A stretch of DNA of 62,880 nucleotides, counting the filler, from Collodictyon triciliatum (lineage: Eukaryota), in NCBI GenBank assembly GCA_043381765.1. It is 4 parts of 4 records of this genome, joined end to end, with 100 filler letters (N's around TTAATTAATTAA, not from the genome) between each part and the next. Parts side by side here need not be neighbours in the genome. Positions count along the whole stretch, not along the records: positions 1 to 25,779 come from JBHJMP010001033.1; 3 more parts are not named here. The stretch is one strand, 5' to 3'. How positions within the stretch are numbered: the first letter of the stretch is position 1; each line of letters begins with the position of its first letter. A program made the position numbers and the translations under genes. Under the pieces are notes generated by a model. That model saw only the letters and a list, made by a program, of their open reading frames with translations. It ran no database searches and was not told where the DNA came from. Shown here piece after piece: positions 99 through 29,100 of the stretch.

Positions 99-127
99 AT
101 AACTGGTTCCAAATTGAAATGTTCAGA

Positions 128-4151: not shown

Positions 4152-4580
4152 AAAAAGGATGCGTGTGCTGCAGTCTCTTCTGGATGAGCACACACGCCTT
4201 TTCTTGGATATTTCATAAAGTGCGCCAACGAAGCCTTTGCTGTCGACCGAGATTGCAAGTTGCCGAGGTTCGTCAGCAAAGGCGCAGATATCCGCAGTTT
4301 TTGCCACTGCAATGACTTCTTCCCTTTCTGCTCTGCCTCTTGGTGGGATTTCTCGGCGAGGAAGCGCGAGTGCCACAAGAGAGAGCGCCAGAGAGAAGGA
4401 CTTGCTTTCTTTCCCCTCTTCTTTGCTTTTTCCCTTCATTCTTTTTTCTTTCATTTTTTCTTCCTCTTTTTCATTTTTTTCTTTTCCTTTCTGATCCCAG
4501 AGAACAGTCGTGGGCGCTTTTTCGGTAAGAATGGTTGTGCTCCGATCCACTCTCAGCCTCATCAAACAATCCAGCGTAGA

Positions 4581-8206: not shown

Positions 8207-10353
8207 ATGGACACTGAAGTTCGTGTTTCGAGTGCAAAAGGAGCCCGTGTTGAAGACCCAGATGTTAGAGAGGGTGCAGAAGAGGCTACAGAAGTGGAGA
8301 ACGAGCTGCTACCAGATACCCGTACCGTCCTATCTCAGACCGTTCCTGTGCATCAGCATACTCGAAAGGTTATGCAGAAAATTGTCAATCTACTGAAAGG
8401 CCTCTCCCGCAAATTCCAGACCGAGGAAGATATTCTCATGGCCATTGAGACTGCCGTGGAGGTACTCATCAGCCATCGCCCGCATATAACCGCCTCTCTC
8501 AACAGAATCAAGGCTAGACTGTCCGCCTCGGATGATATCCCAGTGTACGGCCCCAAAATCCCTTCTCATTATCAAACAAACACTGAGATCCATTCGAAGG
8601 TCAAGGAGAGAGTCCAAGCTAAATTGTCGGAGTTTGAGAAGGCAAAGCAAGAGCAATCCACCGAGAGTGCCGAGAAGGATACGGATTTCGTTCAACAAAA
8701 ATATGAAAGCGGAATAAGCAGTGATAAGGGACCACCATACCAAGAAAATCACCAGAATGAGGTCCGAAGTGATAATGATAGTTTACAGCAACAATTACCG
8801 ATAGTGTTGATGGGTACAGGCCCAGGGACATCCTCCAATAGCACTGCACATACTATAGTATTACAAAAGGTATTCGCATACTGACATATTTTGAATGGTA
8901 TCGATTTCACTGAAAAAAACTTGATACCATTCATATGGGCAACACTTTTCCATGCTTTCACAAATAGAAAAATTCAGATTCGTTCGAGACTATAACTTTC
9001 ACACACACATATATAGGCTAGGCAATTGCTCCAAGATGGCACCCAACCAAAGTTATTTACTCCAGGGAAAGAAACAGCTATGCCCCAGAAGGAAAAACAT
9101 CTCAATTCACAACAAGAGATCGGACACGGGACTGAAAGCGATGAAAGCAACAAAGGATTAGTATCAAATCAACAAAAATCGAAGCATGGTGACATCCAGG
9201 AACATGCTGGGACAACAGGCACGGTGCAAGAAAATGCAACCCGGACAGCCTTCAAAATTGGTGAGCCTAAAGACAAAGAGGGTATCCCACCAGACCAAAA
9301 TCAATACATTACTATGGCTTGTAAAGATGAGAAGGATGCACACACTGGCTTACTGAAGCATTTTTCTCCATCGCTGCATGCTCAAAATTACAACACTCTG
9401 GCGGGGATACCCGTTAATACGCACCCTAATACACATCGGCACAAAATCGTCACCCACGAAAGCGTCGATACCAACCCCAGACGACACATAATACGAAATG
9501 CACTGACTTTTGACACGCACGTAGAATCCCCGAAGCAGGTTCTTTATATAAAATAATTGCACCCTTGTTTCCCCTCCATAGTATTCCATCGGCAGAATAT
9601 GAATTGAGAAATCTTTGATTTACACCTAATATTGTTAGATGGTAGAACTATGAAATATTTTATCTAGTAATTATTCAAAAATTTTAACTTTGATATATTT
9701 GCTGGTGTGATTAGGGGTTCTACTCAAGAAATATTACAAAGGAACCAATTCAAGCAGGCTTTTTACCAGGGAGCTCAATTACACCCCAAAGTCAAAATGT
9801 ACTCAGAGACCGTGATATCGGAGCACAAAGGAGGCCGTTCATACATGAAGACTCTACAGATTTTAACTTTCCTATGCCCCCGGAATATGACCAATTTGAT
9901 TATGAATGTGAGGGCGAGAAGCAGCAAACCTTTACTGGGATAGAAGCAAGTAGGCCAATCCAATCCAGTACATCTGTTCCTTCTAGCACAATATTTCATA
10001 TTGCATCGTATGTTCACCAAGCCTGCAGGTCCAAATTCGGTCATACCATTACGATGTCGACGAATGAAAACTCTTGGATTCAAGTTGCTAAACTTTTGGT
10101 TGATGTAATCTGTCCAAACAGAACACCACTTGAGTTATCAATTTATACTGCAAAAACGTACTTAAATTTGATTTCGACGGTCTCGCTTCCTTTCTTATCA
10201 GAATTCAGTCCGGAGGAGTCTTTGCTTATTGCAAAGTACATTCAATCGATTATATACAATACAGCTGTAGACAAGCCATCGATAATCGGGACACATCAGC
10301 AATATGGCAATTCTCGTCCGACTTTTCATCGCTCTTCTCACGATTGGAAATAG
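8207..10353 (+). CDS. Three-exon hypothetical protein (~600 aa)
   Basis: ORFs 8207-8869, ~9017-9538 and ~9715-10353 join through phase-0 GT-AG introns (LQK|ARQLLQ…SPKQ|GFYSRN…MPPEY…HDWK*). No recognisable domain. Confidence 0.6.
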
Positions 10354-10930
10354 TGATACAAACACGGTTTGGTGTACAATCTTCAATCCAAATTAAAATG
10401 TGTAGTAATAGGAGCCGAGGTAAACTAGATGCCTTTTTTTTTCCCCTCATCACTCGGGTTGCATTCCTTTATACTTTGGTGTAAAAGCGTTTTATGAGGA
10501 CAAAAGGATTTTCATGATTGCAGAATTGCAGTATCTTGTACTTCTCTGCATTGTCTTTTCTATTATGAAGAGAAAGGAAAAGAAAACAAAGCAAAGATAA
10601 AGAAGCACACAACAAAACTAACACAAAAACTAACAAACAAATAGAGGTGGATTCGCAAGACATTGAACCTTTTATTTTTTTTTTTGAGTCGAATGCTCAG
10701 TTTTTGTTATTGTATGCTTGATTGTTACTTGTACTTGAACTCCAAGAAACATACAGGTATTTTTTTTTCCTTTATTCGATTCTAGAAACATACAGGTATA
10801 ACAATATAATACCGATGAAGGGAATCCTGTAAATTTGGTTTTGACGCACACGATGATTAGCTCCCTATTCGTCTTGAAAACTTTGTCACGTAAATGCAAG
10901 TGAAACAACATTGAGATGAAATAGTAGACA

Positions 10931-10985
10931 TTTCCTTTCCTTTCCTTTCCTTTCCTTTCCTTTCCTTTCCTTTCCTTTCCTTTCC
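10931..10985. repeat. (TTTCC)n microsatellite
   Basis: About 11 tandem copies. Confidence 0.9.
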
Positions 10986-11528
10986 TTCTCTTTTTTAGTT
11001 TTTTTTTTTTTAAAAAAAAAGCGTCTATGCTGGATATTCTGGCCTTTCCACTTTCCCAAGACGCGACAGCCAGATAGCAGTCAACAGCTAAGTGCCAAAA
11101 GAAAAGCAGTCTGTGATGTTGGTGTTGGACTCTGCATTCTTCTTTGAATGCGCAGAGTCCAAACAGTGCGGACACTGTAAAAAGACTGGCAAGTATGAGC
11201 ACAAGTGTGACAGGTCAAGCAAAACACAGCCCAAAACTGGGCGGCCTCGACCTGCGCGCAAAGCCACACCGGCCAAGCGTTCTGTATGATGATTCACTTG
11301 TGCAACTTGGCCACTTCCAGGAAAACTTCGGAGGGTTGAAGTTGATCTGAAAAGGCGGGTATATGTGACTCACGGGGCACAACCACTCGAAGCAACTGAC
11401 TCGACACACAACCTTACACTGATAAAGAATAAAGATGTTGAGAGAAGAGAGATGTGGCATGAGTGAAAGCGGACTGTGTTTTGACAATCGAACGCCACAG
11501 GACAAACATCCAAGGGCGCGGAGCAGCC

Positions 11529-14500
11529 ATGGACAAAACAGACTTCGATGCCGTCGTTGTCGGGACAGGACTGACCGAGTCGATCATTGCAAGGTTTGTG
11601 TGCCCTCGAGTTTTTGCTAATTGCAGAGCTGTCTTCCTCACGAGAAAAGACACAGCTCTCGACGATTGAGAGCAACACGAGAGATGTTTCGCTGGACACA
11701 CTCTTGCCATCTAGCAGCAAGAGATCGTATACGCCATTCCTTGCCTTGATTCCCTTCTTGCTCACGAAGCATGTCCACAGCGCACTCTCTCGAGCTGGAA
11801 AGAGTGTACTTCACTTGGATGCCGCCCCCTATTATGGAGGCGCATGGGCCACACTGTCTTTCAAGCAGATATCTTCATTCACTTCGAGCTTCGACGTGGA
11901 ATTAGGTGACATGCTTTTATCTTGATCTTTTCAATCCCTTAAAGTGGTCGCTTTTTTCGACTCATTTGATTGCTCCGAGCATGATATTCACACCCGCGCA
12001 GGTGGCTCAATTATAGGCGAAAAAGAATCTTTTTCATGCGATCCAGAACGCGCAGGAGAGGAGCAGAAAGATGGTATTCATTTTGTGCCTTTTCGTTTTG
12101 ACTGAAGTATAAATCTAAGGGATGCAGCAAATAAAACAGGTTAAGTAACTTGTATAATTAACAAGAACCTGCAGTCGAACTAGAGCAATTGCCTATCATA
12201 CATCACAACCTTGATTGGATATCTAATGTGGATTATGAAATAGCGGAAGGAGCAGTTCCAAACCCAGTGGTATTGTATATTGCTTCCACTTTTCACTCTT
12301 TAGAATTTTTGTTGTTATGTATACTGTAAAAAAAAAAAGCTACAAGAACTGAAGGAGAGTGAGGTACAATTGCCAATTGTTTCAATATAGGGGCATCAAG
12401 ATGTGAGGGAGGACATGACTGATACGTTGCCCTCTGATGGTCACTTGACCGAGACTAGCACAGCTAATCCCATCACTGAAGAACTCATGAAACAATCGCG
12501 TCATTTTAATATTGATTTGTGTCCAAAATTGATAATGGCGAGAGTAAGATATATATAATACATTCAAAGCTTATTGTGTGTTCTCTCTCTCTCTCAATTT
12601 TGATATCCTTTCAGCTTATGAAACTTCTCTCTGTTTTTTTAAATAAATAACCAATTCAATAATAAGGGTAGACTTTGGTGTTCTAGTAACATAAAATAAA
12701 AATAAGTAGTCACCCTAATACTTTTGCCCAAATATGCATAGGGTGCGTTTGTCAGACTTTTGATAGAATCAGATGTAGGAAGGTACCTAGAATTCAAAAA
12801 CCTTGAGGGAATATATTTGCATTCGGATGGGAAGTTTCTCCAGGTATTTTTGGATATTTTTTTTTGTTGTCCTTTCACATAATTTAGTCTTAAATCCCTA
12901 CTATGGCGAGGGTAGACGTGTAATAAAGATCAATACTATATGCCAACTTTTTTTTTTTGCATAAATTAATTAAATTACGCGCAAACAACTCTAATCAACC
13001 ACTTGGCTCTCACGATCGATGTGCTGATTTATTTATTCGTCTATAAGTGACTCATTTTATGTTAGAATACCACATCTGATAAATACATTAGGTCCCTACT
13101 TCACAAGACTCTATCTTCAGCAGTGGGTTCATTACAAATCCTGAGCGGCTTGCTCTGCGAAAGTTTATGAAATTCTGTATGGAGTACAACTCTAGTGAAG
13201 AACCCCATAAGCTGGAAGGTATGAGGTCATCATAGACTCTATGAAAAACTAAAATTTCACTTAAAAGGAAGATAAAAAGAAAAGACATAAAATGCGTATA
13301 ATACCACACAAAGTAACGATATACATGAGTCAGTGACATTATGAACATTTAATAGATGCCATGGCAAATAGTTCATTCACAAAGTTTTTGCAAACATTTA
13401 AGCTATCTCAAAGGCTATGTGAGTTTATATGCTATTCAATAGCCCTACTTGAAGAAAATCAAGGCAAGCATTTATACACATCTATATATTTTATCGTCTG
13501 TTCCAATTTATGGAGGATGAACATTGAAGTTTTTGTTATTTTCTTGAAAAATATCGCTAACATGTTTTGTAAATGCAGAGTCCAACCCGGCTAGTACGAA
13601 AGATGTTCTACCAAAGATTCAATTGTAAACCCATAATTCAATTAATGACTGTCATTATTCTGTAGAAATTATATGAAAAATCATATTTTGATATTTTTTT
13701 TAATATCTTATTACCAAAAGCTTTATTAATTCTATCGGAGTTTATGGGCCTACTCCATATCTCGTTCCTCTTTATGGAACAGGAGAATTACCACAAGCAT
13801 TTTGCAGGCAATTCCCATCTAATATTTTCCATTCCGGAAAACTTTTTCGTGTTACATCTACAAACTTGATACTTGGAACACTATACCACTACCTTGAATC
13901 GTTATTATACGATATTTTCCTTTTTAGATAGAACATAACCAAATTAACTTTTTCTTTTGTATAAAAATAAATAAAAAAAGGTTGAGTGCAATTTATGGTG
14001 GAATATATATTCTGCGTCACTGGCCTACGGCACTCACCGTTGCACATTTACAAGAGGTTTTTTTCTCTTTCTTTTAATTCATATAACTCATGTGAATGAT
14101 ATTCTGCTAGTCTAATGAGGACGGTTATTATTCCACTCTCAGGGAGATAAAGTTGTTCATGTCCGAACAAACGAAGGGTTTCGGTTTAATACAAAATACT
14201 ACATCGCGTCCAGTGTATTTTTTTAATTTTGAATATAATCGCCGAATTATGATAATTTTTTTAAATGAATATTTTCGTTTATTTGTTTACCCTATGAAAT
14301 AACGCACATTTTTCCAATTTTTCGATCCCATCTAATTCATCGCCATACAAGCCTTATATGGCCAATTATGTCAATAAAGAAAAGAAAAGGTAAGAATACT
14401 TTAAATAATCATTACTACTTTTGATTTCATCTAGAAAATTTCTAAAGTTGAAGATATGCGAATGTAATCTTTTTGAAAAAAATTATTTATTTTCTTTCTT

Positions 14501-15890
14501 TTCTATTTTTGTTTTCCTTTCTCTTACTCTTACACAACTGCCCTATAGAACGTTCTCTCGCTGCATTTGCGTGACTGATCGTTCCATCATTTCATCACAA
14601 GAAATGGTTATCGCGTCCTTACCGGTGTGTACGCGTGACAAAATTGATTCATTGAAGTAGAATTGTCCTAAAATCTAACTAATTATCGTGCGACCCAGCC
14701 TAACCGTTGTGGAAATGCACACCCGGTCCGCCTAAACCAGTGTGGAAACCACAGCTCTAACGCACCGAAAGGAAAATGTACGTTTGGTCACATATAAATT
14801 AACTGGTTTCAATACCTGGATAACTTTTCAAAGTTACCTTTACCTTTTTTTCTCCCCTTCTATTCTATCCTTTTTTTTAATTTTTTTTTTACCACAATTC
14901 TTACTGCCATCCTTTGTTTGAATTTATTTATTAACATTTATGTTTTCCACAGTCATTCTATATTTCTCCACACTATCTAGCGGAGAACGCTCACTTGTTG
15001 ATTTAAAGTCCAGTGTCGAGTTTATCACAACAACTCTCGATAATGACCCTACTAAACCTAAGCGACTATGGACCATGTTTTACACCCAGGTTTCAATTAC
15101 GTCACGAAATCTTGATAGACTTGCTAGATTCGTCCATATTTTAACTGAATTTAGGCATCGCATAATCGCACGCTTTACTTTATAGACATGCCACCATGAA
15201 CTTATTGCACAAAGGCCTGATAATATCTTTCTAACACCAGACCCCACGGGTGATATAGACCCAAGGTATGACTTTTTTTTTATTTCCCATTTCCAAATAT
15301 AATTTACAATCATATTATGAACCAATTCCTGTTTCGTTCCGTTTATACATTGCCATTAATATATACACTATTACATAACACAAACGCCACCATTGGCTTC
15401 CTTTCACGAATGAAGTTGCTCGGTGTTGGATGCAAAAGCTATATTTGAGAAGATATGTCCCAATACTGATTTTTTACTCAAACAAGTGGAGGAAGAAATT
15501 GTAAGCAATATTTTTTTTTATCGCTGCCTATTTGCTTGAAAAAGAACAAACTATACTCAAATTTCCAATAGCCAAAGAGCAGTCCCTTTTAGTTCAACCA
15601 AACATATGATTTAGTGCCCAGAGGACACAGAGGACTACATGGACGCTATGTCATTAGCCAGACTGCAACAAGAGTTGACCAAGGCGTCATCCAAACAACC
15701 AATGACAGATGCACCAGCGACTGAGAATACTTTGGAAAGTGAAATTGTTTCTACTCCACAAGAGCCCACAGAAATCCCTAGAGACCCCGAAGTTCTGCCA
15801 AGCCAAGAAACACCCCATGCATGCGAGACTGAAAATAGTGCGCAAGGTTATTCCCAGGATTTATCAATGGCCGGCGGGACAGAAAATTGA
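11529..15890 (+). CDS. CHM: Rab escort protein (REP/CHM, Rab GDI superfamily), multi-exon
   Basis: Motifs [58 protein letters not shown] and [26 protein letters not shown] long insert after the first conserved region and the C-terminal [15 protein letters not shown] plus acidic tail fit REP rather than GDI. Confidence 0.88.
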
Positions 15891-16105
15891 GTCCTACAGG
15901 CACTTCGAACTCTAAAAACAGTGCCCATAAAGCAAGGAAAAATACCAGCTTCATTTATTCATTTTTCCTTTTGTATATTTTGTGCGAGTGTAAGGCTTCA
16001 CTGCTCATTCTTTAACGAGAACATCAGCGATCAAATTAGGGGAATGAATCTGGGAAGTGGAAAAATAAAACAGGTTGTAGCAAAATATTGGCAGTGGTGG
16101 GTTTA

Positions 16106-16897
16106 TTACATGACCAGAGAATTCCTTCCACTGGGGCTAGACTGTAGTTTTTCTCCGCAGTTGAAGCAGAAATTATTGTTCATGGGATTTTCAGCGCGGC
16201 AGTTGCAACAAAAGTACCCACGATTACCGTCACCAAAAAAGACAGGCTGAATGTCTCGAATCTATTCAAGGAAGGGTAAGTTTGTTCCTTGATGTATGAA
16301 GGTAATAGGAAAATATCTCCGTTTGGCTGTTCAGATGAGAATAAAACTTGTTACCCTCCCAACCAACCAGTACGCGTAAATCAATGTGAGCATTAGACCC
16401 GCGGTCGCGATGAAAAATAATAGTGTTAAACCCCACCCGAGAGAGCCTTCCAAGGTGATATTATCAATGGCGATATCCGAGACCTTTGCAGACTCAGTTT
16501 TGACATCAATTTTGACAGGGCGCCTCATATTGTCAAATCGAAAGTCGTACCGCGTCAGAGGGGCGTTTGTCCTGTGCAGAGGTTTAGATGTTGGGGTCTG
16601 CGGTGATGGTCCAGTTGCTTCGATTCACGACGAACGCAGAAGATAGATAAATGGTAAGGTTGAATATAAAGAAAGAATGTTTACCTGAATACTGCATCCA
16701 TCTCCTCCAAAACCATGGCCAAAGTGATGTTGAAGCACAGGTCAACACAGTACTTTGGGGGGCGAGGCGGGGCGAGAGGCGCAGTTTGGCCCGGGGCGGA
16801 AGATCTCGTCACAACCTCGGACCAGAACTCATCCCAGGCCTGGTTTTGAGGCCCTGGTCGGCGCGGTTCGTAGAAGCATTCAATGCACGTCAGGTCT
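16106..16897 (-). CDS. 3' part of a single-pass membrane protein with C-terminal zinc ribbon (5' exons lost in gap)
   Basis: Spliced: …MDAVFR|TNAPLTRYDFRFDNMRRPV…GWGLTLLFFIATAGLMLTLIYAYWLVGR|IRDIQPVFFGDGNRGYFCCNCRAENPMNNNFCFNCGEKL…M*. One hydrophobic helix followed by CxxC-x10-CxxC. Confidence 0.6.
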
Positions 16898-16977
16898 GCA
16901 GCGAGGGTTGGTTATCCTGTCAAACATCTGCTGCGGTCTGAACATAAACGCGAGAGCGGAGGGGAAAGAGGGCCACA

Positions 16978-17938
16978 NNNNNNNNNNNNNNNNNNNNNNN
17001 NNNNNNNNNNNNNNNNNNNNNNNNNNNNNNNNNNNNNNNNNNNNNNNNNNNNNNNNNNNNNNNNNNNNNNNNNNNNNNNNNNNNNNNNNNNNNNNNNNNN
17101 NNNNNNNNNNNNNNNNNNNNNNNNNNNNNNNNNNNNNNNNNNNNNNNNNNNNNNNNNNNNNNNNNNNNNNNNNNNNNNNNNNNNNNNNNNNNNNNNNNNN
17201 NNNNNNNNNNNNNNNNNNNNNNNNNNNNNNNNNNNNNNNNNNNNNNNNNNNNNNNNNNNNNNNNNNNNNNNNNNNNNNNNNNNNNNNNNNNNNNNNNNNN
17301 NNNNNNNNNNNNNNNNNNNNNNNNNNNNNNNNNNNNNNNNNNNNNNNNNNNNNNNNNNNNNNNNNNNNNNNNNNNNNNNNNNNNNNNNNNNNNNNNNNNN
17401 NNNNNNNNNNNNNNNNNNNNNNNNNNNNNNNNNNNNNNNNNNNNNNNNNNNNNNNNNNNNNNNNNNNNNNNNNNNNNNNNNNNNNNNNNNNNNNNNNNNN
17501 NNNNNNNNNNNNNNNNNNNNNNNNNNNNNNNNNNNNNNNNNNNNNNNNNNNNNNNNNNNNNNNNNNNNNNNNNNNNNNNNNNNNNNNNNNNNNNNNNNNN
17601 NNNNNNNNNNNNNNNNNNNNNNNNNNNNNNNNNNNNNNNNNNNNNNNNNNNNNNNNNNNNNNNNNNNNNNNNNNNNNNNNNNNNNNNNNNNNNNNNNNNN
17701 NNNNNNNNNNNNNNNNNNNNNNNNNNNNNNNNNNNNNNNNNNNNNNNNNNNNNNNNNNNNNNNNNNNNNNNNNNNNNNNNNNNNNNNNNNNNNNNNNNNN
17801 NNNNNNNNNNNNNNNNNNNNNNNNNNNNNNNNNNNNNNNNNNNNNNNNNNNNNNNNNNNNNNNNNNNNNNNNNNNNNNNNNNNNNNNNNNNNNNNNNNNN
17901 NNNNNNNNNNNNNNNNNNNNNNNNNNNNNNNNNNNNNN
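16978..17938. other. Within-scaffold assembly gap (961 N)
   Basis: N run without the TTAATTAATTAA spacer. Confidence 0.95.
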
Positions 17939-17980
17939 TGAAGCCGAATATATATTAATATTAATATATATTCGGCTTCA
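17939..17980. repeat. Perfect 42-bp palindrome at the element end
   Basis: TGAAGCCGAATATATATTAAT|ATTAATATATATTCGGCTTCA; the second half is the exact reverse complement of the first. Confidence 0.97.
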
Positions 17981-18257
17981 CAATTGTTCTGAACCTGCAA
18001 TTTTGACATTGTTTCAGTGTATCCAGGGGGTTGGCGAGGCGTTTCTCAAGTCCTGGCGAGGGTATTGCCAACCTCCCAGGGCTTCCCCCACACTCTTTTT
18101 ATATGTCAGCCATCTCCGGAAATTATTCATTTGGTTTCGCCGTTTGTGTTGGAACTTAAGTCAGTAACAAAGGATTACATAAACAGCATGAGACCCCCCA
18201 CACTCTTTTAGGTGTCCAGGTTCGCCGTTTGTGTTCGTAAGTAGGTTTGCGGAAAAC

Positions 18258-18808
18258 GAGAGGGTGAGAGGGTGTAGAGGGTGTTTTTTGACCCCCCCCG
18301 GTTCCGGCTGGGATTGCCATTTCCGGTTTCCGGAATTACTATCCCCCCGGAAATGGGGGAACCGGAAATCCATTCTCACAGCTGAATAGGAATGAACACC
18401 CTCTCACCCTCTCACCCTCTCCAAATAATTATAAATATATAATATAAATATATAAGACTGAGAGGAGTAAGAGAATTAAACATATATTTCCGGAATTTTC
18501 CGGAAAAAATAAAAAATAGAGGGTGTTAGGGTACACCCTCTATTTTTCATAAATTGAAATTTCCGGGAATCCCAGCCTTAAAGGGAGTCGAATTGAGCAT
18601 TTTCTCCCTCATAATTTTTTCCTTATATCTTTAGTGCGGGGGCCAGGCTACTGACTCACCCACCCGGCTACCAACCGGGGGTAAGTATTTTCCGGAAATT
18701 TCCGGAAAAATCAGGGGGCGGGACGGGAACACCCTCTCTTTTTCAAAAATTTGGCGTGGATTTTCCGGGGGACGGGAACACCCTCTCTTTTTCAAAAATT
18801 TGGCGTGG
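18258..18808. repeat. Cluster of inverted and direct repeats (putative origin/terminal repeat region)
   Basis: (GAGAGGGT)3-like 18258-18285 is inverted against 18395-18421. There is a hairpin at 18512-18547, a 22-bp palindrome at 18688-18709 and a 40-bp direct repeat at 18720-18759/18769-18808. Confidence 0.9.
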
Positions 18809-18911
18809 GCTGGGTTTTGAGCAAAAAATTGCGGCAAGGTCTGGGGCTTGGGTAAAGTATTCAATTTAAATTGAATATTTTATTTAATGTTGGCGCGCCA
18901 GGGTAAGATGT

Positions 18912-19313
18912 TTATTCTGCTTCTACGTCGCTTAAGTGGTCTGAATCATAATCGTAATTTAATGTGCGTTTTTCTCCCACCGCCACAAACTCCATAAGAG
19001 ATTTCTCCAAAATATGCACCACCCTGTCAGAATCGCATCCCCTCTCTCTCATGTTGTTTGTTATCTGGGTTATTTTTATAAAAGACGTTTGCAGGGTTAG
19101 CGGGTCTTTGACTCTTTCCACGATTTCATGAAAATCATCAAGTGAATACGTATGCAGACCCCTAAATTTAATAATGAACCCCAGCCAATTTATTACGTAA
19201 AAATTTGTGGTACTAATTTCCCCATAATCGTCTTCAAATTCTTGGAAAACAATTTCAACTTTAAGGCCGTCAAAAGCAAAAGAGAAAATTTCGGGGTTGC
19301 TGGCGGAGTTCAT
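18912..19313 (-). CDS. Hypothetical protein of the mobile element (~133 aa from first ATG)
   Basis: Intronless ORF, divergent from the HNH gene across an AT-rich spacer. No motif recognised. Confidence 0.55.
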   Translation of the reverse strand: MNSASNPEIFSFAFDGLKVEIVFQEFEDDYGEISTTNFYVINWLGFIIKFRGLHTYSLDDFHEIVERVKDPLTLQTSFIKITQITNNMRERGCDSDRVVHILEKSLMEFVAVGEKRTLNYDYDSDHLSDVEAE

Positions 19314-19412
19314 TCCTATTCTTACAAAACAAAAAAATTTGAAATTTAAACGCACTTTTACATTTTTTCGACAGAATCATTTTCTAAAAAAAATATTTTT
19401 CTGAGAATCATT

Positions 19413-19907
19413 ATGACAGAAGTTGAGGTCTTTGCCCGGGTTTTGGATTTTCCTAATTATATGATTTCAAATTTTGGCCACGTCCTAAGAAATGGTCAAG
19501 TACTTAACCCATTTATAAATAACAGCGGTTATGCGAGCGTTATGTTATCAAATGGCACAATCCAGAAACCTTGTTTAGTCCATCGACTTGTAGCCACTTA
19601 TTTTGTGGAAAAAAATAACCCAGATTTTAATATAATTGACCATATAAACGGGAACAAGGCAGACAACCATTATACAAATATACGATGGTGCAATGCCTCA
19701 ATGAATGCCAGGAACCGAAAGGCAATTTTATCAAACACACAAATTCAGGGAGTACATAAACATAAAAATGGTTCTTTCGAGGTTTCTTATTATGTTGATA
19801 TATATCAACGAAAACGAAAATATTTTAAAGACTTGGATTCTGCCATAAAATGGCGTGAGAAGATGGTGGATATATATTATTCCAGGGTTAAAGCTTCCGA
19901 GCCCTGA
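19413..19907 (+). CDS. NUMOD4-HNH homing endonuclease with AP2-like C-terminal DNA-binding domain
   Basis: YMISNFGHV (NUMOD4), VHRLVA…IDHINGNKADNHYTNIRW…N (HNH), GVHKHKNGSFEV…KRKYFKDLDSAIKWR (AP2-like). Confidence 0.92.
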   Translation: MTEVEVFARVLDFPNYMISNFGHVLRNGQVLNPFINNSGYASVMLSNGTIQKPCLVHRLVATYFVEKNNPDFNIIDHINGNKADNHYTNIRWCNASMNARNRKAILSNTQIQGVHKHKNGSFEVSYYVDIYQRKRKYFKDLDSAIKWREKMVDIYYSRVKASEP

Positions 19908-20709
19908 AAACAACTGATTTCAATTTATCCGGGTCCCGCTGTAGGTCTGCGACGTTTTTGAGAATCTTCATGGCACTAGCCTGGAACCCTCCAAGGTACG
20001 CCCATCTCTCAATTTCTTTGTATGTTCTTGGCCCGTATTTTTGCCCGCCCTGTACACCATAATACCCGCCATTGTTATCTGCTTTTATGGTTATTTGATC
20101 GATCCCATTTGTGAAGGAAATCACCTTCCCCGTGGGGGTTCCGTTGTTTGCCACCGAGGTAACTTTTTCGCTTGAAAACATTGACGTGGGAGAGAATCCC
20201 GCCCCTGCTTTTTGTTCTCCCTTGACATAACCAGCCATAGCCCTGTTCTGGGCTTGCAGCTTTCTAATTAAATCCAAACGTTTAATTAGGTCCTTTGTAT
20301 CCTCGTCTGCAAATTCAATATATTGCGCGCCAATCCGGTCAAATTCGTTTATTAATTGTTGTTTGGTTTTTAGTTTCCAACCAGGGTCGTAATAATATTC
20401 AAGACTCTTTAACTCTTTCGGGGTAAACATCGGGTCATCTTCTTCCCCGGGAGCAGGTTCTTCCCCGGGAGCAGGTTCTTCATATTCTTGTTGTTCTTCT
20501 TGTGGTTCATCAGGGAAGCGAGATTCACGTAATGCCGAACTAAATGCCCGTCGCATTGACTCTGTAAACTCTTCAAGACCAATCTCAAATCCTTTTAATT
20601 GTTGTGGATTTTGAGATTTTGATCTGGCACGAGATGACTTTGGCTGTGATGATTCTGCTTCGGGTCTACCTGGGCGGTCTGGTTGTGGTGAATTATCTCT
20701 TAAAGACAT
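19888..20709 (-). CDS. Hypothetical protein of the mobile element (273 aa)
   Basis: Long intronless ORF with an EPAPGE duplication; overlaps the HNH stop by 20 bp. Confidence 0.75.
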   Translation of the reverse strand: MSLRDNSPQPDRPGRPEAESSQPKSSRARSKSQNPQQLKGFEIGLEEFTESMRRAFSSALRESRFPDEPQEEQQEYEEPAPGEEPAPGEEDDPMFTPKELKSLEYYYDPGWKLKTKQQLINEFDRIGAQYIEFADEDTKDLIKRLDLIRKLQAQNRAMAGYVKGEQKAGAGFSPTSMFSSEKVTSVANNGTPTGKVISFTNGIDQITIKADNNGGYYGVQGGQKYGPRTYKEIERWAYLGGFQASAMKILKNVADLQRDPDKLKSVVFRARKL

Positions 20710-20727
20710 ATGATAATAAACATTTTT

Positions 20728-21783
20728 TTACCTTAATTTTATATCTATATAAAAAGAATCTGATAACCTGACTCTCATCACGTTATTTGGAATTCTTTTT
20801 TTCCCCTTGTACTTCTCCTCTGGGGTTATTTCTTCTACATTAGTCTTCTCCTCTGGAAATAGTTCGACCCCTTTAATGTCTGGAAAAACACTTGATTTTC
20901 TAAATTTTTGCGATTTCAATCCTTTTTTTATTTCCTGGGTAAAATTTCCCTTTGGAGTTTTGTTATAAAAATCTTCTATATTGTCAATTAATGTATATAG
21001 TATGTCGTATTTGTTTGAGAAAGGTGTTATTGATTTTTCATGTTTAATGTTAACATCAAGCTGTAAGACATTATTATAAATATCTTTCTTGACTGACATA
21101 ATGTTATTTTTAATTACAACTTCATCTGACTTACCTTGTTTAATTTTAGTTGCTATAGTTTTTATGTCTTGGTGTATTTTATAAAGTTGATTTAATTCAA
21201 TACTTGAGTTTGTGCTCAATTCTTTCATATCCAGATCTTCACCAGGTATTTTTTTTGGGGTAGAAGGTTCCACCCTTTCCTCTTCTGGCTCCGCTTCAAG
21301 TCTCTGCAGCGACGTATCTGCTTTTGAAATTGCTTTAAAAAAATAATCTTTATGTCGTTCTGTGAATGAACTTGGTTTTAAAATTTGTTTCAAATTTACA
21401 TAATCTGTATTTGTATATTTACCAGTTAAATACGTTATTCTATCCCGTAGTTCTATCCCTTCAGGGGTTGACATGTTGACGACATACACTTTATTTGCCC
21501 TATCATAATGGTACGCAAAATTTAACACTGGAGACTTTATTTCATTTTCAGAATCTACATAAGAATTATACACATAAATTAAAGCATACATCATATGTAT
21601 ATAATCCTCGTCAGGGTAATAACTTTTTGAAAAATTATCTTTTTCTTTAAGTACAGATTCCCACAAATTATTTCGGTTTTCTTCTGTAAATTCTCCGATA
21701 CCGTTCTCATTTTTTATAATTTCTCTGGTATGGTGGGGCTTTTTGCTACCAGACATTATTTTAGATATTAGAGATTGACTCAT
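20728..21783 (-). CDS. Hypothetical protein of the mobile element (351 aa)
   Basis: Long intronless ORF in AT-rich DNA, 18 bp upstream of the 273-aa ORF. Confidence 0.78.
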   Translation of the reverse strand: MSQSLISKIMSGSKKPHHTREIIKNENGIGEFTEENRNNLWESVLKEKDNFSKSYYPDEDYIHMMYALIYVYNSYVDSENEIKSPVLNFAYHYDRANKVYVVNMSTPEGIELRDRITYLTGKYTNTDYVNLKQILKPSSFTERHKDYFFKAISKADTSLQRLEAEPEEERVEPSTPKKIPGEDLDMKELSTNSSIELNQLYKIHQDIKTIATKIKQGKSDEVVIKNNIMSVKKDIYNNVLQLDVNIKHEKSITPFSNKYDILYTLIDNIEDFYNKTPKGNFTQEIKKGLKSQKFRKSSVFPDIKGVELFPEEKTNVEEITPEEKYKGKKRIPNNVMRVRLSDSFYIDIKLR

Positions 21784-21935: not shown

Positions 21936-23210
21936 ATGATGAACAACATGGAGACAAAAAAAAACAAAACGTCAATAATCCCAAAAAGCGAATGGCAAGC
22001 GAAAATTAGTGAAGTTTTTTACAATGAACCAAAACACACGATGTCCAGGGACGCCCTTTTTACAGCTGTACGGCAATATGGAATTTCCAGATCATATGTA
22101 GATAAATTTATAAAAAGTCAACCAGACTGGCAAATTTTGCAACGAGCTCCGAAACCTAAGGAGACCCCGACGATTATGCGATATGAACCGGGTTACGTGC
22201 AAATTGATACAATTGACATCAAAAATATGGAAAGTGATTCTGCTAAATACTTACTGACATGCGTTGATGTTTTTACACGAAAATTGTGGGCGTATCCACT
22301 GGAATCAAATACAGCAACGGAGGTCGCCCGGCAACTACAAAAATTTATAAATTCATATAAGATACTCAAAACGATACAGTCAGACAACGGGGCCGAGTTT
22401 GTTAACGAGACCGTTAAACGGTTGTTAGAGTCAAGAAACATAACCCACGTTAAGAGCTTACCGGCTACCCCAACGAGTCAGGCGTATGTGGAAAGAAACA
22501 ACGGGACTTTAAAGAGGGCTCTTTATGGCTACATGCAGAAAACAGGTAAGGACCCTATTCCAGACCTCGACAGCTTTGTAGATTCTTTAAACTTACAACC
22601 AAATGCCACAACGGGGGTCGTTCCGGCTGTTGCCATGCTTCCAGAATATAAAGACAAGATTCTCGAGAATATGGAAAAATATAACTCTAAGAAAAACGAC
22701 CAGGGCAACACCAAAGATTTAGAACCGGGCGAAAAAGTACGGGTTCGACTAGAAAAAACAGATATACCGGCGGATATGAGAAACAAAATAAAGAAACAAA
22801 AAGGATACCTCCCAAGGTGGTCGGCATCAGTCTATAAAATAAAACAAAGGTTCGAAGCTAAATCGACCTGGGCCCTGCCATCATACACCCTAGACACATC
22901 TGATAGTCTAAAAAACAAACGTTTTAGAAGATCGGATTTATTAAAGCTGTCAGAAGAGACAAAGATAGAGACCCATAAACCAAAGTCAACCCAAAAAATG
23001 AAAGAGTCGGCCCCGTCTATTCTAAATTATTTCTCTGGTCAACCCACAAGAGAAATCGACGAGGAAGATGAGTTTTATGAATATATAAGACCCAGAGAAA
23101 GACGTCCGAGCGGGCCAGAGGAAGCGGAATATATTCGATTTAATGAACAAACAAAAATAAAGCAAGCTAATGAACGGAGTAAAAGATTGCTTAACAGGAA
23201 TAAAAAATAA
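21936..23210 (+). CDS. Retroviral-like (rve, DDE) integrase of Polinton/Maverick-virophage type
   Basis: VQID…LTCVDVFTRKLWAYPL…IQSDNGAEF…QAYVERNNGTLK with exact D-x35-E spacing. The N-terminus (FYNEP…ISRSYVDKFIKSQ) lacks HHCC, and the C-terminal GEKVRV…KGYLPRWSASVYKI is typical of Polinton-type integrases. Confidence 0.93.
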   Translation: MMNNMETKKNKTSIIPKSEWQAKISEVFYNEPKHTMSRDALFTAVRQYGISRSYVDKFIKSQPDWQILQRAPKPKETPTIMRYEPGYVQIDTIDIKNMESDSAKYLLTCVDVFTRKLWAYPLESNTATEVARQLQKFINSYKILKTIQSDNGAEFVNETVKRLLESRNITHVKSLPATPTSQAYVERNNGTLKRALYGYMQKTGKDPIPDLDSFVDSLNLQPNATTGVVPAVAMLPEYKDKILENMEKYNSKKNDQGNTKDLEPGEKVRVRLEKTDIPADMRNKIKKQKGYLPRWSASVYKIKQRFEAKSTWALPSYTLDTSDSLKNKRFRRSDLLKLSEETKIETHKPKSTQKMKESAPSILNYFSGQPTREIDEEDEFYEYIRPRERRPSGPEEAEYIRFNEQTKIKQANERSKRLLNRNKK

Positions 23211-23732
23211 TTATGTTTTACTGGGTTGCATGGCTTTACTAATTGATTTTTTTGGCTCTCTCTTTTTTCTAGGGGTCGCCTGGGTCTCTTCCTTCTTTAC
23301 TTCTTTAAGTTCTTCCGCTATTTTTTCGTTATCATATTTCACGCTTCTCTCTCGGTTACTGTCACGCGTCTCTGCCGCTTTCTTTCTCCCCTTTTTGATA
23401 ATCTCTTCCACGTCTTTCTTAGTTTTGAAAAACATGACGACGTTATCCTGGTTCACGCTCCATTTTGTTGCGTACTGTCTAAAGAAAAAAACTTTATCTT
23501 TATTGCCCTTCCGTCTGACTTGTTCTTCTTCATCTGGGACAGCCGAAATAAAACCACCTTTCTTCCATCCTCCTTCTGTATCTGTACCGCTGTTATATTT
23601 CCTTGGTTTTGCGATATATGCAATATAGTCCCCGACCTGTATGTCTTCCGGGGCAATCGGCGCCCAATCTTCGGAGCTAAAATTTTCTGGGAGCAACTTC
23701 TTTATTGTTTCGGTAATTTCTGGGGGAGCCAT
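23211..23732 (-). CDS. Hypothetical SH3-like beta-barrel protein with basic tail (173 aa)
   Basis: IQVGDYIAY…WKKGGFI…KWSVNQDNVVMFFK. Its stop codon directly abuts the integrase stop. Confidence 0.75.
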   Translation of the reverse strand: MAPPEITETIKKLLPENFSSEDWAPIAPEDIQVGDYIAYIAKPRKYNSGTDTEGGWKKGGFISAVPDEEEQVRRKGNKDKVFFFRQYATKWSVNQDNVVMFFKTKKDVEEIIKKGRKKAAETRDSNRERSVKYDNEKIAEELKEVKKEETQATPRKKREPKKSISKAMQPSKT

Positions 23733-23793: not shown

Positions 23794-25779
23794 TTAATCA
23801 TATGTTTCTGGATAGTAATCGTCTATTTTAAATTTTAACCCATTTTCTTTATTTCTCAATTTGTCAACAGATATATTATAAAACGTACCCAGCTCATAAA
23901 TATCCGAATTCTCTGCATTTTTTCGTAATTTTGTGTATTCCTTTCTAATAAATAACTCTGGATATTTCGAGATATATTCTTTTAATTCTGGACTTTTTAT
24001 AAACGATTTAAACTTGAGATTTTTCACAAATTCCGGAGCTGCTATAGTGTTACAAACCTCTTTATATAATTCAAAAAACAACTGAGCTTTAACAACTACT
24101 ATCTCTTTTTTATGAAACTCGAATCCACCTTTTTTGAGGTATCCGTATTTTTCTTCATAGTAGCTGTCCCACTCAAATAAAATAATATCCATGAATTGGA
24201 AAAACGTTGGTTTAAATGTTTCCTTCAACTCTTCTTGTGTGTCACATTTTGGCAACTTGTCATAATTAAAATTCGGGTCATACATCTTTAAGATATACAA
24301 TAAGAGTAATCTGTTATAATATTCGTTTCCACTCTCTTCCCGTAATTTTTTTTGATCTTCCTCACTCAATCTATATTCTTTGCAATCTATCATGGGGAAT
24401 CTTCTGTGATTTTCAGATTCAAATTCGAACGCACATTGTTTATTCGTTAATGCGATATAGCTCGTATAGTTCTTGACCGGGAAGGGGTCCGTCCTCATCA
24501 ATTTTATTTCTGATCGTGATCGGGTTATCGCAGCTTTTATATTTTCAGTAAATTTCTTTGTGTCCTTGGCCCCTGTCTCTTCGCACAATATAAGCAATTT
24601 GTTAAATATACTCGCATTAAAGTATCCAAAGAGGTGAGCGGCTTCACTCTGACTAGTGAAATAAGTTTCTCCCAGTAACTTATTGGCAAAATGTCTCTCA
24701 AGAAATCCAGATTTTCCAGAACCTCCCGTAGCGTTGCGCAAACAAAGTGCTTTCTCGCATAATTTTGGTGTGTTAAAAAGTATATTGCCCAGTATATTTA
24801 TAAAGTACTTTATATTGTACTCTTGTATATTCTTGTCGTTATGGAAACAAAATATCTCCTCAATTTGCCATTTGGTTTTTGAGTTGTCCCAGTCAATTTG
24901 CTCTTGTTCTGTCAATGGAGTATTTTTCAAGTCTGCAACCAATTTTTTATAATTCTCGTTAGACATGAGACCCGGGTTCCCAAACAGTGCGGTCCATGGG
25001 TGGCCCTTAAACGTGTTATATACTCCCTTTGGTACATCTACGCCATACGGATAAAAGCCAAACATAACATATTGCCGCATAGGATACGCACAGACTGTTT
25101 CCCAAACATCTTGAGGCTTGCAATTAAATTCCTCGTGAAATTGCATAACGTAGGACTTGGCGTTTTGTATTTCTTGTGGGCGGTCAAATAATTCGTTTTC
25201 GCGATACAACTTTCCGTTCATTGTAAAATGCGTGTGCCAAAAATCAGGCGGTGGCGGTTCTGTTTTTGGAGGCACATAAGAAAATTCCCAGTCCATTTTC
25301 ATCTTCTTTTCTGTCAATTTGACTTCATACGATGTTTTTTCTTTTATAAACGCTTCGCAGGCTCTTAAAAGATGTTCCGGGAAATCTGATTCTCCATTTT
25401 TTCGAATCATACAACCATCGTGAATTAGCACGTCCACGCTTCGGCCTGCTGAGGTAAAAAATTCATTCATGGCCTCCAAGAGAATTCTCTCCTCAGTTTG
25501 GAGAAACAATGAAAGCATCTTAAATTTTTTATTTGGCCCAGCCTGTGAAAGACAGTGATTGTCATTGCGTAATCGAAGGGGCTGCCAGTCTTTTTTTTCT
25601 TTCCATATAAATTCGGCAAGCTGATTCCATTCATTTTGAATGTTTGAAAGGTCGTTATATACCAATTCAATGTCAAAAGATTGGCAATAATTTGGGATTT
25701 CAGCAAATTCAGGAGCTTGCCCGCCGTACGCTATTTTTAACAATGCGATCTTGGCGTCAAATCGATCCATGTTGAACCT
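23794..25779 (-). CDS. PolA-like primase-polymerase (TVpol) fused to SF3/D5-like helicase, 5'-truncated
   Basis: DAKIALLKIAYGG (motif B-like) and LQTEERILL…VLIHDGCMI (motif C-like), then Walker A GGSGKS, Walker B LILCEE, motif C IALTN and RRF. The frame stays open to the scaffold end. Confidence 0.85.
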   Translation of the reverse strand, partial: RFNMDRFDAKIALLKIAYGGQAPEFAEIPNYCQSFDIELVYNDLSNIQNEWNQLAEFIWKEKKDWQPLRLRNDNHCLSQAGPNKKFKMLSLFLQTEERILLEAMNEFFTSAGRSVDVLIHDGCMIRKNGESDFPEHLLRACEAFIKEKTSYEVKLTEKKMKMDWEFSYVPPKTEPPPPDFWHTHFTMNGKLYRENELFDRPQEIQNAKSYVMQFHEEFNCKPQDVWETVCAYPMRQYVMFGFYPYGVDVPKGVYNTFKGHPWTALFGNPGLMSNENYKKLVADLKNTPLTEQEQIDWDNSKTKWQIEEIFCFHNDKNIQEYNIKYFINILGNILFNTPKLCEKALCLRNATGGSGKSGFLERHFANKLLGETYFTSQSEAAHLFGYFNASIFNKLLILCEETGAKDTKKFTENIKAAITRSRSEIKLMRTDPFPVKNYTSYIALTNKQCAFEFESENHRRFPMIDCKEYRLSEEDQKKLREESGNEYYNRLLLLYILKMYDPNFNYDKLPKCDTQEELKETFKPTFFQFMDIILFEWDSYYEEKYGYLKKGGFEFHKKEIVVVKAQLFFELYKEVCNTIAAPEFVKNLKFKSFIKSPELKEYISKYPELFIRKEYTKLRKNAENSDIYELGTFYNISVDKLRNKENGLKFKIDDYYPETYD

Positions 25780-25879
25780 NNNNNNNNNNNNNNNNNNNNN
25801 NNNNNNNNNNNNNNNNNNNNNNNTTAATTAATTAANNNNNNNNNNNNNNNNNNNNNNNNNNNNNNNNNNNNNNNNNNNN
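25780..25879. other. Artificial scaffold-joining spacer
   Basis: 100 nt of N with central TTAATTAATTAA (stops in all six frames). Confidence 0.97.
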
Positions 25880-25976
25880 AAATAAAAATAAAAATAAAAA
25901 TAAAAATAAAAATAAAAATAAAAATAAAAATAAAAATAAAAATAAAAATAAAAATAAAAATAAAAATAAAAATAAA
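25880..25976. repeat. (AAAAAT)n microsatellite
   Basis: Tandem hexamer at scaffold start. Confidence 0.9.
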
Positions 25977-26181
25977 AAGAGAAAGAAAAAGAAAAATAAA
26001 AAGAAAAAGAAATGAAAAAAAAACGAAACACTTTAGAAACAAACAGATTTACATACCTTGTATAAATTGGAAAAAAAAAAGAGGACGAGTAAAAACGGTC
26101 AAGATAACAAAAAAATAAAAAAATAAAAGATGTATTTAAAGACAAATTCTATTCATACTTTCGTTCTGAGCTCAATATCAA

Positions 26182-29100
26182 ATGATTCAGATGGGGCTTG
26201 TCTCCCTTATAACAGTGCTTCTTTCTCTAGGTATGTCTCAAATTATATAAAGCATTGAAATTATAATAAATTTCAAAAAAAAAAAAAGCACGTCAAGCAC
26301 TTCATCTGATCACATAAGATTTTCAAGCGTAAGCCAGATAAATCTCATCCTATATTCAGCTATTGCATTAGGCGCTTCGTCTGTCACTGCTAGTGACAGT
26401 TCTACAGCCACACTTGTTAGCCAAAATGTCCACACAAACAAAATCAGGTGCGTTGCAGCGTCTCCTGATGGTTCAAATATAATCTCAGCTAGCGACGACG
26501 GGACTTTGAAACTATGGGAATTGTCTGATGGGCGCATGATTCTCACCTTTCTTGGGCATTCCGACGCTGTCTTGTCGGTGAGGTTCTCCTCAAATGGACT
26601 TTACATAGTGTCTGGGGGAGCTGATAAGACCATAAAAAAATGGGACACATCGGCTGGCTCTGTGGCGCTTACCATGCTTGGCCACACGGGCGCAGTGAGA
26701 TGCATCGCTCTTTCCCCGGATGGCATGACTATAGCCTCTGCTAGTGATGACACAACCATAAAGCTGTGGGATTTTTCAAATGGAGGCCTGGCAAATACAA
26801 TCCATGGGCACACAAGCGCGATACTAAGTTTAGCTATATCTCCCAACGGATTGAGGCTTGTGTCTGGTGGTGGCGATAGTACTATCAAAGTTTGGGACAT
26901 TACAAACGGAAGCATTATACGCACCATTTATGGACACACAGACGGTGTTTTGTCTGTGGCATATTCACCTGACGGAACATATCTAGCATCAGGCAGTGCG
27001 GATGCTTCTGTAAAACTGTGGGATGCCTCGAATGGTTCCATTGTTTCTGCCTTTCATGGACACAATAGTCAAGTAAACAGTGTCTGTGTCAGCCAAGACG
27101 GGCTCAAGCTATTATCAGCCAGTAATGACAAAACTGTGTCAGTATGGAGTCTCGAAACTGGAAAGGAGCTTCATCAATTAAGCCAACACACTGGGCATGT
27201 CAATAGTGTTACAATTACCCCAGACAACTTGTTTATCGTTTCTGGCAGTAGCGATATGACTATGAATTGCTGGGGTATTGAAGATGGGATTCTCACCAGG
27301 ACACTTTCTATATCTAGCGATGTAAACAGCATTTCAGTCACTCGGGATGGCAATAGCATCATTTCAGGAAGCAACGACAACACAGTAAAAATATGGGATC
27401 CAAAAAATCAGGCTATACTAAGGACGTTGTCTGGCGGAACTGGCTTTGTTGAGTGCGTTGCCATGTCAACCGATGAAAAGAAAATAATATCGGGCCATGG
27501 GTGGCCAGACAATTCTGTCAGAGTATGGGATTTTGAAAGTGGCGGTCTCATCTATTATCTACGAGGACATTCAAACTCAGTGAATGACGTTCTTGTCACC
27601 CCTGATGATTCGAGAATCATATCTGCCAGCAGCGACAACACCATCAAGATTTGGGCTCTTTCTGATGGTGCTATTACCCGAACATTTAAAGCACATAGCG
27701 CGATGGTGAGTGACATTGCTTTGAGTTCAGATGGTCTAATCCTTGTTTCTGCTTCATATGATTCCACGGTCAAGATTTGGAGCCTTTTGGAATCTAAGCT
27801 CATCCAAACTCTAACTGGGCACGTAGGCCAAGTTCTAGCCGTCTCAATTACACCTGATGGAAAACAAGTAATATCAGGGGGATGGGATGCGCTCATAAGA
27901 ATATGGGATATTTCAGATGGTTCATTGATTCGCTCATTGTCTGGACATATCGACCAAATATATTCAATCTCAGTTAGCCCCAGTGGCCAAAGGATTGTTT
28001 CGGGCAGTGCCGACCAAGCCATCAAAATCTGGGACATTTCAGGCGGAAGCTTGTTACATACATTCATGGGGCACAAAGGCAGCGTAAAATCTGTTGTTGT
28101 TTCGGCAGATGGCGATAGAATCGTGTCAGGAAGCGGCGATAACACAATAAAGCTTTGGATACTATGCCACAGAGGCAGCTATTACGACAAGTCACTCAAT
28201 TCTTGCCACATGTGTAGTCCAGGCTCCTATATACCGCCAAATCAATATTATTATTGTTCTCTTTGTCCATACGGAACATTCCACCAACTTTATGGGTCTA
28301 CAGATCCGGACGAATGCCTGCCATGTCCACCAGGAACTTACAGTCCGACAAGTGGCAGTTCAGCATGCCTTGATTGTGAGGCAGGCACATACAATGGCGC
28401 GCTAGGTCAAAAATTATGTATAGAATGCCCGTCGGGTTTCTACAACCCCCTAGTTGCGCAGCAATTTTGCATTCCGTGCTCGGCTGGTTCATACTCTAAT
28501 ACAACGAAATCTAAAACATGTGATTTATGCCCAGCTGGTACTTTCAATCCGAGTGTGGCTGCAAACGGTATTACTCAATGTATTGCATGCCCCAGCGGAA
28601 CCTACTCGGCATTCCAGGGCCAATCGTCTTGTGATTTGTGTCTCCCTGGGCAATACAATCAAAAAATAAACCAGATAGAGTGCAGTTCATGCCCTAAAGG
28701 TACATACAACCCCAATTATGGAAAAAAAGAACTGACATCATGCCTGGAATGCCAACCTGGGACATATGGTTCACAAGACATGACAGAATGTACTCCATGC
28801 CCCCAAGGCACCTTCAATGAGGAGGGGGGAGTTACAGATTTGACGTCTTGTTTGGAATGCCCCGATGGGAGTTACAGCGCTGAGAGAAGCGCATATTGCA
28901 TCTCCTGTTCACCTGGATTCTACCAAAAGGAAGGAGTTTCAAAGAATGCTACCTCTTGTCAAAAGTGTCCGAAAGGAACATTCAATCCTTTTTCTGATTC
29001 GTATGGAAAGTCCTCATGTGTTGGATGTCCTCAGGGCACGTACAATAATAGGGAAGGGCTGGCGTCGTGTACATCCTGTCCAGCCGGGACATTCAATAAC

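Follow-up and report, generated by a model that had tools for sequence, protein, structure and literature searches.

It is not settled how polinton-like viruses (PLVs) and virophages that have lost the protein-primed polymerase copy their linear genome ends; terminal palindromes are a very recent suggestion, made for one host and in one preprint. According to the portions of that preprint on which we draw, endogenous virophage subtypes 1, 2, 5 and 6 and PLV subtype 4 of Halocafeteria seosinensis bear palindromes at their termini, which are located inside the TIRs and next to the TSDs and measure 52 nt in one subtype (bioRxiv 10.64898/2026.07.28.741278). The same portions describe rve integrases and non-pPolB replicases in the palindrome-tipped elements, HNH endonucleases in subsets of them, and a proposal that the hairpins prime replication after excision, with parvovirus rolling-hairpin replication cited as the analogy and accidental annealing given as the authors' own alternative (bioRxiv 10.64898/2026.07.28.741278, 2026, unreviewed). 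In the literature searched, this preprint alone links palindromes to PLV or virophage termini; neither 'palindrom' nor 'hairpin' occurs in the text of a cryptophyte PLV paper (PMC12220804) or in the excerpted text of an EMALE paper (PMC8547959). For the Tetraselmis striata PLVs Tsv-S2a, S2a.bis and S2b, excerpts of a further preprint give a D5-like helicase-primase and TIRs that measure 583-1,724 bp, and describe the genome tips as runs of the AT dinucleotide (bioRxiv 10.1101/2025.10.09.676808). A PLV 'end module' of inverted repeat, primase-helicase and recombinase, together with poxvirus hairpin telomeres as replication starts, appears in excerpts of another paper (PMC11296320).

We analyzed a 62,880-nt stretch of the Collodictyon triciliatum assembly GCA_043381765.1, hereafter the window, in which four parts of four records are joined end to end. 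The first part (JBHJMP010001033.1, positions 1-25779) carries a perfect palindrome at 17939-17980, and the preliminary description had placed this palindrome at the edge of a mobile element. This placement was confirmed: the palindrome forms the visible outer edge of an element with an rve integrase and a D5-like helicase. The integrase is of the retroviral type and the helicase is an SF3 enzyme, and no pPolB accompanies them in the visible part. The reading that we prefer, and that we consider moderately probable, is that the palindrome is genuine and self-contained (about 42 nt, possibly slightly longer) and sits at, or very close to, the outer limit of the non-coding terminal region in an integrated PLV/virophage-supergroup element. 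Relative to the 2026 preprint, the locus would represent a further case of a very recently described type of terminal palindrome.

Three identical 100-nt artificial linkers (N44 + TTAATTAATTAA + N44, with stops in six frames) occupy 25780-25879, 51623-51722 and 59409-59508, the first of them marking the end of the element-bearing scaffold. These linkers join separate scaffolds, and neighborhood across them therefore carries no meaning. Elsewhere in the window, two very long uninterrupted ORFs with WD40 repeats (at least 13 matched stretches) were found at 26536-31125 (+ strand) and 52709-54676 (- strand), the former additionally containing 12 ephrin-receptor-like repeats. A SNO/PDX2 glutamine amidotransferase is spread over two ORFs on the - strand (31531-31980 and 32012-32452), a split consistent with an intron or a frameshift. 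The G+C content of the window is patchy; together with the split gene and the giant repeat ORFs, this gives the DNA a eukaryotic appearance.

The 42 bases at 17939-17980 are identical to their own reverse complement, with two arms of 21 nt (17939-17959 and 17960-17980), no mismatch and no spacer. A 26-bp core of A/T only is enclosed by the G+C-containing clamps TGAAGCCG and CGGCTTCA, each arm being composed of the outer clamp (TGAAGCCG) and a 13-nt inner part of A/T only. A whole-window scan identified this as the longest perfect palindrome; the runners-up, with arms of 11 nt (18688-18709) and 10 nt (18858-18877), are both situated in the adjoining non-coding stretch. Shuffling the 61,414 non-N bases 100 times, with dinucleotides preserved, gave longest arms of 6 to 16 nt and never one of 21. 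When the 21-nt arm was searched at up to 3 mismatches, the window contained only the two palindrome sites (0.01 chance matches expected), and neither a second arm nor a second copy of the whole element was present within the window. The earlier claim of a mismatch-free, AT-centered 42-bp palindrome is thus upheld, with an exact 21+21 match that no shuffle equals. The 102 nt from 17939 to 18040, folded as ssDNA, give an MFE (-21.4 kcal/mol, z = -6.6) that none of 200 shuffles equaled; in this fold the palindrome forms a stem of 19 bp closed by a 4-nt loop.

The first visible bases of the palindrome are TG, and its ends read TG...CA. Substrates of retroviral-type integrases end in the dinucleotides 5'-TG ... 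CA-3', and the preliminary description had matched the two. The match stands in that the ends are real and fit a retroviral-type integrase, but the palindrome forces CA once TG is present, so only TG is informative, and TG has a chance of about 1/16. With 17939 assumed to be the true terminus, the TG...CA ends would suit such an integrase but may be due to chance.

As described earlier, no base separates the palindrome from a gap: a run of 961 N (16978-17938) lies directly to its left, ending at 17938, and covers whatever adjoins the element edge. A second sized run, of 241 N, is found at 33086-33326, and the two lengths, 961 and 241, make the gap sizes look like estimates. The palindrome is outermost in what can be seen of the terminal region, with the gap as its left flank and the other end of the element outside the window. 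Apart from 17939, where the palindrome forms the edge, and 25779, where the scaffold ends inside a gene, all scaffold and gap edges and both window ends consist of homopolymer, microsatellite or pyrimidine-rich low-complexity sequence. The low-complexity edges (1-100, 25880-25980, 51560-51622, 59340-59408 and 62780-62880) carry (A5-6C)n, (AAATAA)n-like and (GAAAA)n sequence and T or A runs longer than 60, all typical assembly break points. Since the edge at 17939 is the only one formed by a palindrome, contig break and palindrome are plausibly effect and cause; the most economical cause of a break exactly at this base is plausibly the palindrome's effect on assembly or sequencing.

We simulated canonical-k-mer (de Bruijn) unitigs on random sequence. 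A long perfect palindrome, whether produced by hairpin read-through or by a head-to-head junction, yielded one unitig that overshot the axis by (k-1)/2, that is, by 10, 15, 21 and 27 nt at k = 21, 31, 43 and 55, respectively. A self-contained 42-bp palindrome with unique flanks broke the graph at k <= 43 and was read through at k = 55; at k = 43, the right unitig started exactly at the first base of the palindrome. When several different left flanks were supplied, the shared unitig started at this same base at k = 55 as well. Short and long palindromes thus leave the same 21-nt overhang at k = 43, and contact with the gap therefore does not discriminate between them. The earlier argument that the mirror may extend further, given that it starts at the gap, is weakened by these data, as the simulated self-contained palindrome also starts a contig there.

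These results bear on the alternative that the visible 42 bp are the center of a much longer, collapsed inverted repeat, which could be a mirrored terminal region of about 950 bp, a head-to-head junction (of two copies, or in a circular or concatemeric form) or the read-through of a closed hairpin telomere in the style of pox- and chloroviruses or of protelomerase replicons. The palindrome does reach right up to the gap, and its 21 nt beyond the axis equal the simulated overshoot at k = 43, but a self-contained palindrome produces the same overhang. Measured from the axis, the left contig is 982 nt away (961 N + 21) and the first ORF, at 18912, is 952 nt away; the two distances are similar enough for a mirror image of the terminal region to occupy the gap almost exactly, although the agreement may be a coincidence, the size of the gap being an estimate. 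A core of A/T only, as in the palindrome, is also what is seen in known hairpin tips and telomere-resolution sites. On the other hand, blastn and tblastx found nothing in 1-16977 similar to the element on either strand, and only a piece of up to about 980 nt could be accommodated in the gap. The full head-to-head dimer, which the preliminary description had raised as an end-to-end junction, is therefore not supported unless the gap estimate is badly wrong. None of the 16 ORFs in this left flank has a credible Pfam family, one sub-threshold match having been discarded. Against a free telomere, the contig is scaffolded 961 N away from an unrelated contig, a weak argument in view of the errors that scaffolding can make. 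In addition, Pfam and PHROGs detected no protelomerase, tyrosine recombinase or Holliday-junction/telomere resolvase in the seven visible ORFs, which is again a weak argument because the element is truncated. The covalently closed hairpin telomere suggested earlier fits poorly as a free end, being scaffolded to an unrelated contig and accompanied by no visible resolvase. We regard a longer inverted repeat as possible but on the unlikely side.

A second alternative is an artefact in which a fold-back (inverted chimeric) read added 21 nt of its own reverse complement to a real sequence starting at about 17960. Inverted chimeras arise by fold-back, for example during strand-displacement amplification or through hairpin ligation at DNA ends. 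A short mirror at the very edge of a contig, where one read can set the consensus, would agree with such an origin, as would the self-complementary words ATTAAT and AATATATATT in the right arm, which favor fold-back priming. However, the axis falls within a distinctive 26-bp A/T-only core with its G+C clamp, at the tip of a long non-coding region; no mirror like that at 17939 was seen at the nine further contig, scaffold or window edges that were inspected; and real terminal palindromes have been reported in related elements. An artefact is in our judgment distinctly improbable, and the palindrome is treated below as genuine.

Behind the palindrome, a repeat-dense non-coding region of 931 bp (17981-18911) was found, a putative TIR and/or origin. 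It contains no ORF of at least 100 aa and a single ORF of 70 aa (18161-18373), and its G+C content is 0.44, compared with 0.367 in the coding part of the element. The direct repeat CCCCCACACTCTTTT occurs twice, at 18085 and 18195, as does TTCGCCGTTTGTGTT, at 18136 and 18221, the duplicated words in 18085-18246 being 15 nt and 26 nt long. An array of three GAGGGTG-type units (18258-18285) is opposed by another array of three in inverted orientation (18395-18421); the words TTCCGGAA and CCGGAAAT sit between these inverted arrays, and a 31-nt tract of A/T only (18425-18455) lies beside the inverted units. The motif TTTCCGGAA(T/A)TTTCCGGAAAAA is present at 18487-18508 and 18689-18710. A hairpin with 18-bp arms (18509-18550), an identical pair of 40-bp direct repeats (18720-18759 and 18769-18808) and a 30-bp near-palindrome (18853-18882) are also located in this region. 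Judged by its sequence, the layout of 18258-18455 is origin-like and makes it a candidate helicase loading site. A palindrome-capped, ORF-poor and repeat-packed stretch of 931 bp matches the expectation for a terminal repeat or an origin.

Five of the seven occurrences of TTCCGGAA in the window fall within 18328-18707. TCCGGA is clustered in a similar manner, with 6 of its 17 window occurrences within 18115-18707. A preprint legend on Tetraselmis virus 1 names TCCGGA as a palindromic upstream motif of unusual frequency (10.1101/2022.07.28.501842), and the cluster hints at a possible giant-virus helper or host. No Rfam family or tRNA was detected in or near the element and no tRNA in the window. 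Scans for sigma-70 promoters and terminators did not exceed shuffles, with 4 terminator-like sites found and 2.5 expected.

The additional palindromes and hairpins nearby (18509-18550, 18688-18709 and 18853-18882) make palindromes a general feature of the terminal region, and the 42-bp palindrome could accordingly be a genuine but short internal site (an origin, an operator or a terminator-like site) with no role in end replication, the terminal region continuing into the gap. The terminator-like scan lists the palindrome as a stem with a T-containing tail, in a total not above that of shuffles. Nevertheless, the 42-bp palindrome is perfect and twice the size of any other in the region, it lies outermost, and the precedent elements bear such palindromes at their extremity. 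We therefore hold an internal site to be highly improbable and retain the reading of a genuine palindrome at or near the element end.

Seven ORFs are visible in the 7.8 kb of the element. The coding G+C content is 0.367, compared with 0.41-0.46 in the neighboring scaffold parts. The ORF nearest the terminal region, ORF133 (133 aa, 18912-19313, - strand), has no family match. It is followed by an HNH homing-type endonuclease of 164 aa (19413-19907, + strand), assigned by Pfam and PHROGs (NUMOD4 + HNH_3), with a PDB match to 1u3e, 'HNH homing endonuclease' (E 1.4e-11). In an exact look-up of six element proteins in a protein collection, only the HNH ORF was present, on one contig of 1,590 bp, which says nothing about copy number. 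An exact match for this protein alone would agree with a homing-endonuclease gene that moves on its own. ORF273 (-) converges on the HNH gene (+), the two 3' ends sharing 20 nt (19888-19907).

ORF273 (273 aa, 19888-20709, - strand) has a disordered N-terminus, in which a mismatch-free tandem duplication of 18 bp (20440-20475) repeats a hexapeptide of the PAPGEE type; its C-terminal domain, about 165 aa long, is conserved. The structure model of the C-terminal domain shows an alpha/beta fold with a pLDDT of about 90. The same domain was found C-terminally in 25 representative proteins with lengths of 170-629 aa, 10 of which have no Pfam family above the cut-off, and Foldseek returned no match in PDB or BFVD at E <= 0.001. 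The C-terminal part of ORF273 is an uncharacterized conserved domain of these elements. ORF351 (351 aa, 20728-21783, - strand) is kept in six relatives and has no family in Pfam or PHROGs; its model is mostly helical but of low confidence (pLDDT 50.9).

The retroviral-type rve integrase (424 aa, 21936-23210, + strand) was identified by Pfam PF00665 (E 1.7e-15). Its DDE triad, D111/D150/E186, is intact and invariant across the 16 aligned sequences (the query and 15 of 23 matches). The best PDB matches are retroviral integrase cores, with 114 PDB sequences at E <= 0.01 and the triad aligned. Between the integrase and the helicase lies ORF173 (173 aa, 23211-23732, - strand), which is rich in lysine and glutamate and has no family.

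The D5-like SF3 helicase (DUF5906/VapE-like, 23794-25779, - strand) matched Pfam DUF5906 (E 9.5e-16) and a PHROG annotated 'DNA primase'. Pfam assigned its homologues as VapE-like and reported no primase domain proper. The alignment of the query with 13 of 69 matches, used as a profile, found no match among PDB sequences. In alignments with homologues of 778-824 aa, the match starts at their residue 136 and on the window reaches base 25779; for one of them, P0009, the figures are residue 138 and base 25776. The homologues run on past 25779, which indicates that the scaffold end cuts both the helicase gene, with the loss of the first ~135 residues, and the element. Within the seven visible ORFs of this truncated element, Pfam and PHROGs detected no capsid gene (double jelly-roll MCP or penton), packaging ATPase, protease or pPolB; morphogenetic genes may be situated past the cut at 25779.

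Close homologues of the helicase, the integrase and ORF351 share 65-90% identity with them and are all unnamed proteins. Among the homologues of these three proteins, P0002, P0071 and P0094 have a longest-contig entry of 11,846 bp, and P0003 and P0072 one of 12,095 bp. The shared sizes suggest a conserved module. The element family may be small, about 12 kb and possibly capsid-less, and shorter than typical PLVs. The gene set fits the polinton-like virus/virophage supergroup (Polisuviricotina); membership in PLVs or virophages proper is unproven because no capsid gene is visible in an element cut at 25779. A pattern search of genome contigs based on the helicase alignment matched 101 stretches, none of which was confirmed. 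A 21-mer spanning arm and flank gave one match in genome contigs, in a proteobacterial MAG with no palindrome, where about one was expected by chance. Against 50,697 phage records, tblastn of the helicase returned four weak matches to phage primases and none to virophages, and blastn of 17939-19400 returned no match.

A possible mechanism follows from the preferred reading of a genuine, self-contained terminal palindrome. With the element in linear form or its end single-stranded, the 3' end would snap back into the hairpin with its 19-bp stem and 4-nt loop, and the 3'-OH of this hairpin could prime a host or helper-virus polymerase, so that the extreme end would be copied. Fold-back priming would in this way solve end replication for a replicon started internally by a helicase/primase, probably at the iteron-like arrays and the A/T tract in 18258-18455, where the helicase would load. 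A strand-specific nick would then reopen the hairpin. The homing endonuclease I-HmuI nicks one strand, and the I-HmuI-like HNH endonuclease of the element is a speculative candidate for this step. The outermost 5'-TG/CA-3' would be used by the integrase. Fold-back priming, HNH nicking and integrase use of CA are steps that we infer.

The preliminary description had proposed that a hairpin end takes the place of protein-primed replication. This part of the proposal accords with the precedent in the preprint on related elements and with the lack of a pPolB in the visible 7.8 kb, but covalent closure sits uneasily with the scaffolding. In a stronger version, a real hairpin would cap the element, with the palindrome as its read-through or unfolded state, and the element with its rve integrase and helicase, possibly small (~12 kb) and capsid-less, would copy a linear form by way of fold-back or covalently closed ends, the HNH nickase resolving them, thereby combining pox- or parvovirus-like ends with retroviral-type integration. 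We consider this version improbable and keep to the self-contained palindrome at or near the end of an integrated element.

If terminal palindromes also occur, independently and in perfect form, beside the rve integrase and D5-like helicase of another element family, they would seem to be general. The 42 nt, with a G+C clamp and an A/T core, would also offer a concrete substrate for assays of fold-back priming, of nicking and of end-processing by the integrase. In practice, such palindromes interrupt short-read contigs precisely where elements end, and they may therefore be systematically under-reported.

Several known systems can be set beside this locus. Poxviruses and chloroviruses, with their hairpin telomeres and concatemer junctions, and protelomerase replicons such as phage N15 and those of Borrelia have A/T-rich palindromic ends in which the axis is the hairpin tip. 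These hairpin-telomere replicons share with the present element an A/T-rich palindrome at the replicated end, and they replicate that end with no terminal protein. They differ in encoding a resolvase, none of which is visible here, whereas the element described here has an integrase and looks integrated and scaffolded. In the rolling-hairpin replication of parvoviruses, terminal palindromes fold back so that their 3'-OH can prime synthesis, and the end is resolved afterwards by nicking. Parvoviruses, however, have ssDNA genomes and an HUH Rep nickase; no HUH protein was seen here, and the only nuclease is of the HNH homing type. Polintons/Mavericks and mavirus-like EMALEs likewise combine an rve integrase, long terminal non-coding repeats and a replication/integration module near the end, but their pPolB, capsid, ATPase and protease are not visible in the 7.8 kb of the element.

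The Tetraselmis PLVs, as described in the excerpts, are also small integrating elements with a D5-like helicase-primase and self-complementary A/T genome tips. In contrast to the present element, they use a tyrosine recombinase rather than an rve integrase, and their tips are simple AT repeats with no G+C-clamped palindrome. Of the Halocafeteria elements, as described in the preprint, the TIR pair, TSD and capsid genes have no visible counterpart at our locus, and the likeness drawn here is one of layout and gene content. Two features of the Halocafeteria type were nevertheless found in the visible ORFs, namely an rve integrase (PF00665, E 1.7e-15) and a non-pPolB replication gene, the DUF5906 helicase. 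As far as these descriptions go, both systems bring together a palindrome of tens of nucleotides (52 at the tip there, at least 42 at the outermost visible base here), an rve integrase and a non-pPolB replicase of D5 type.
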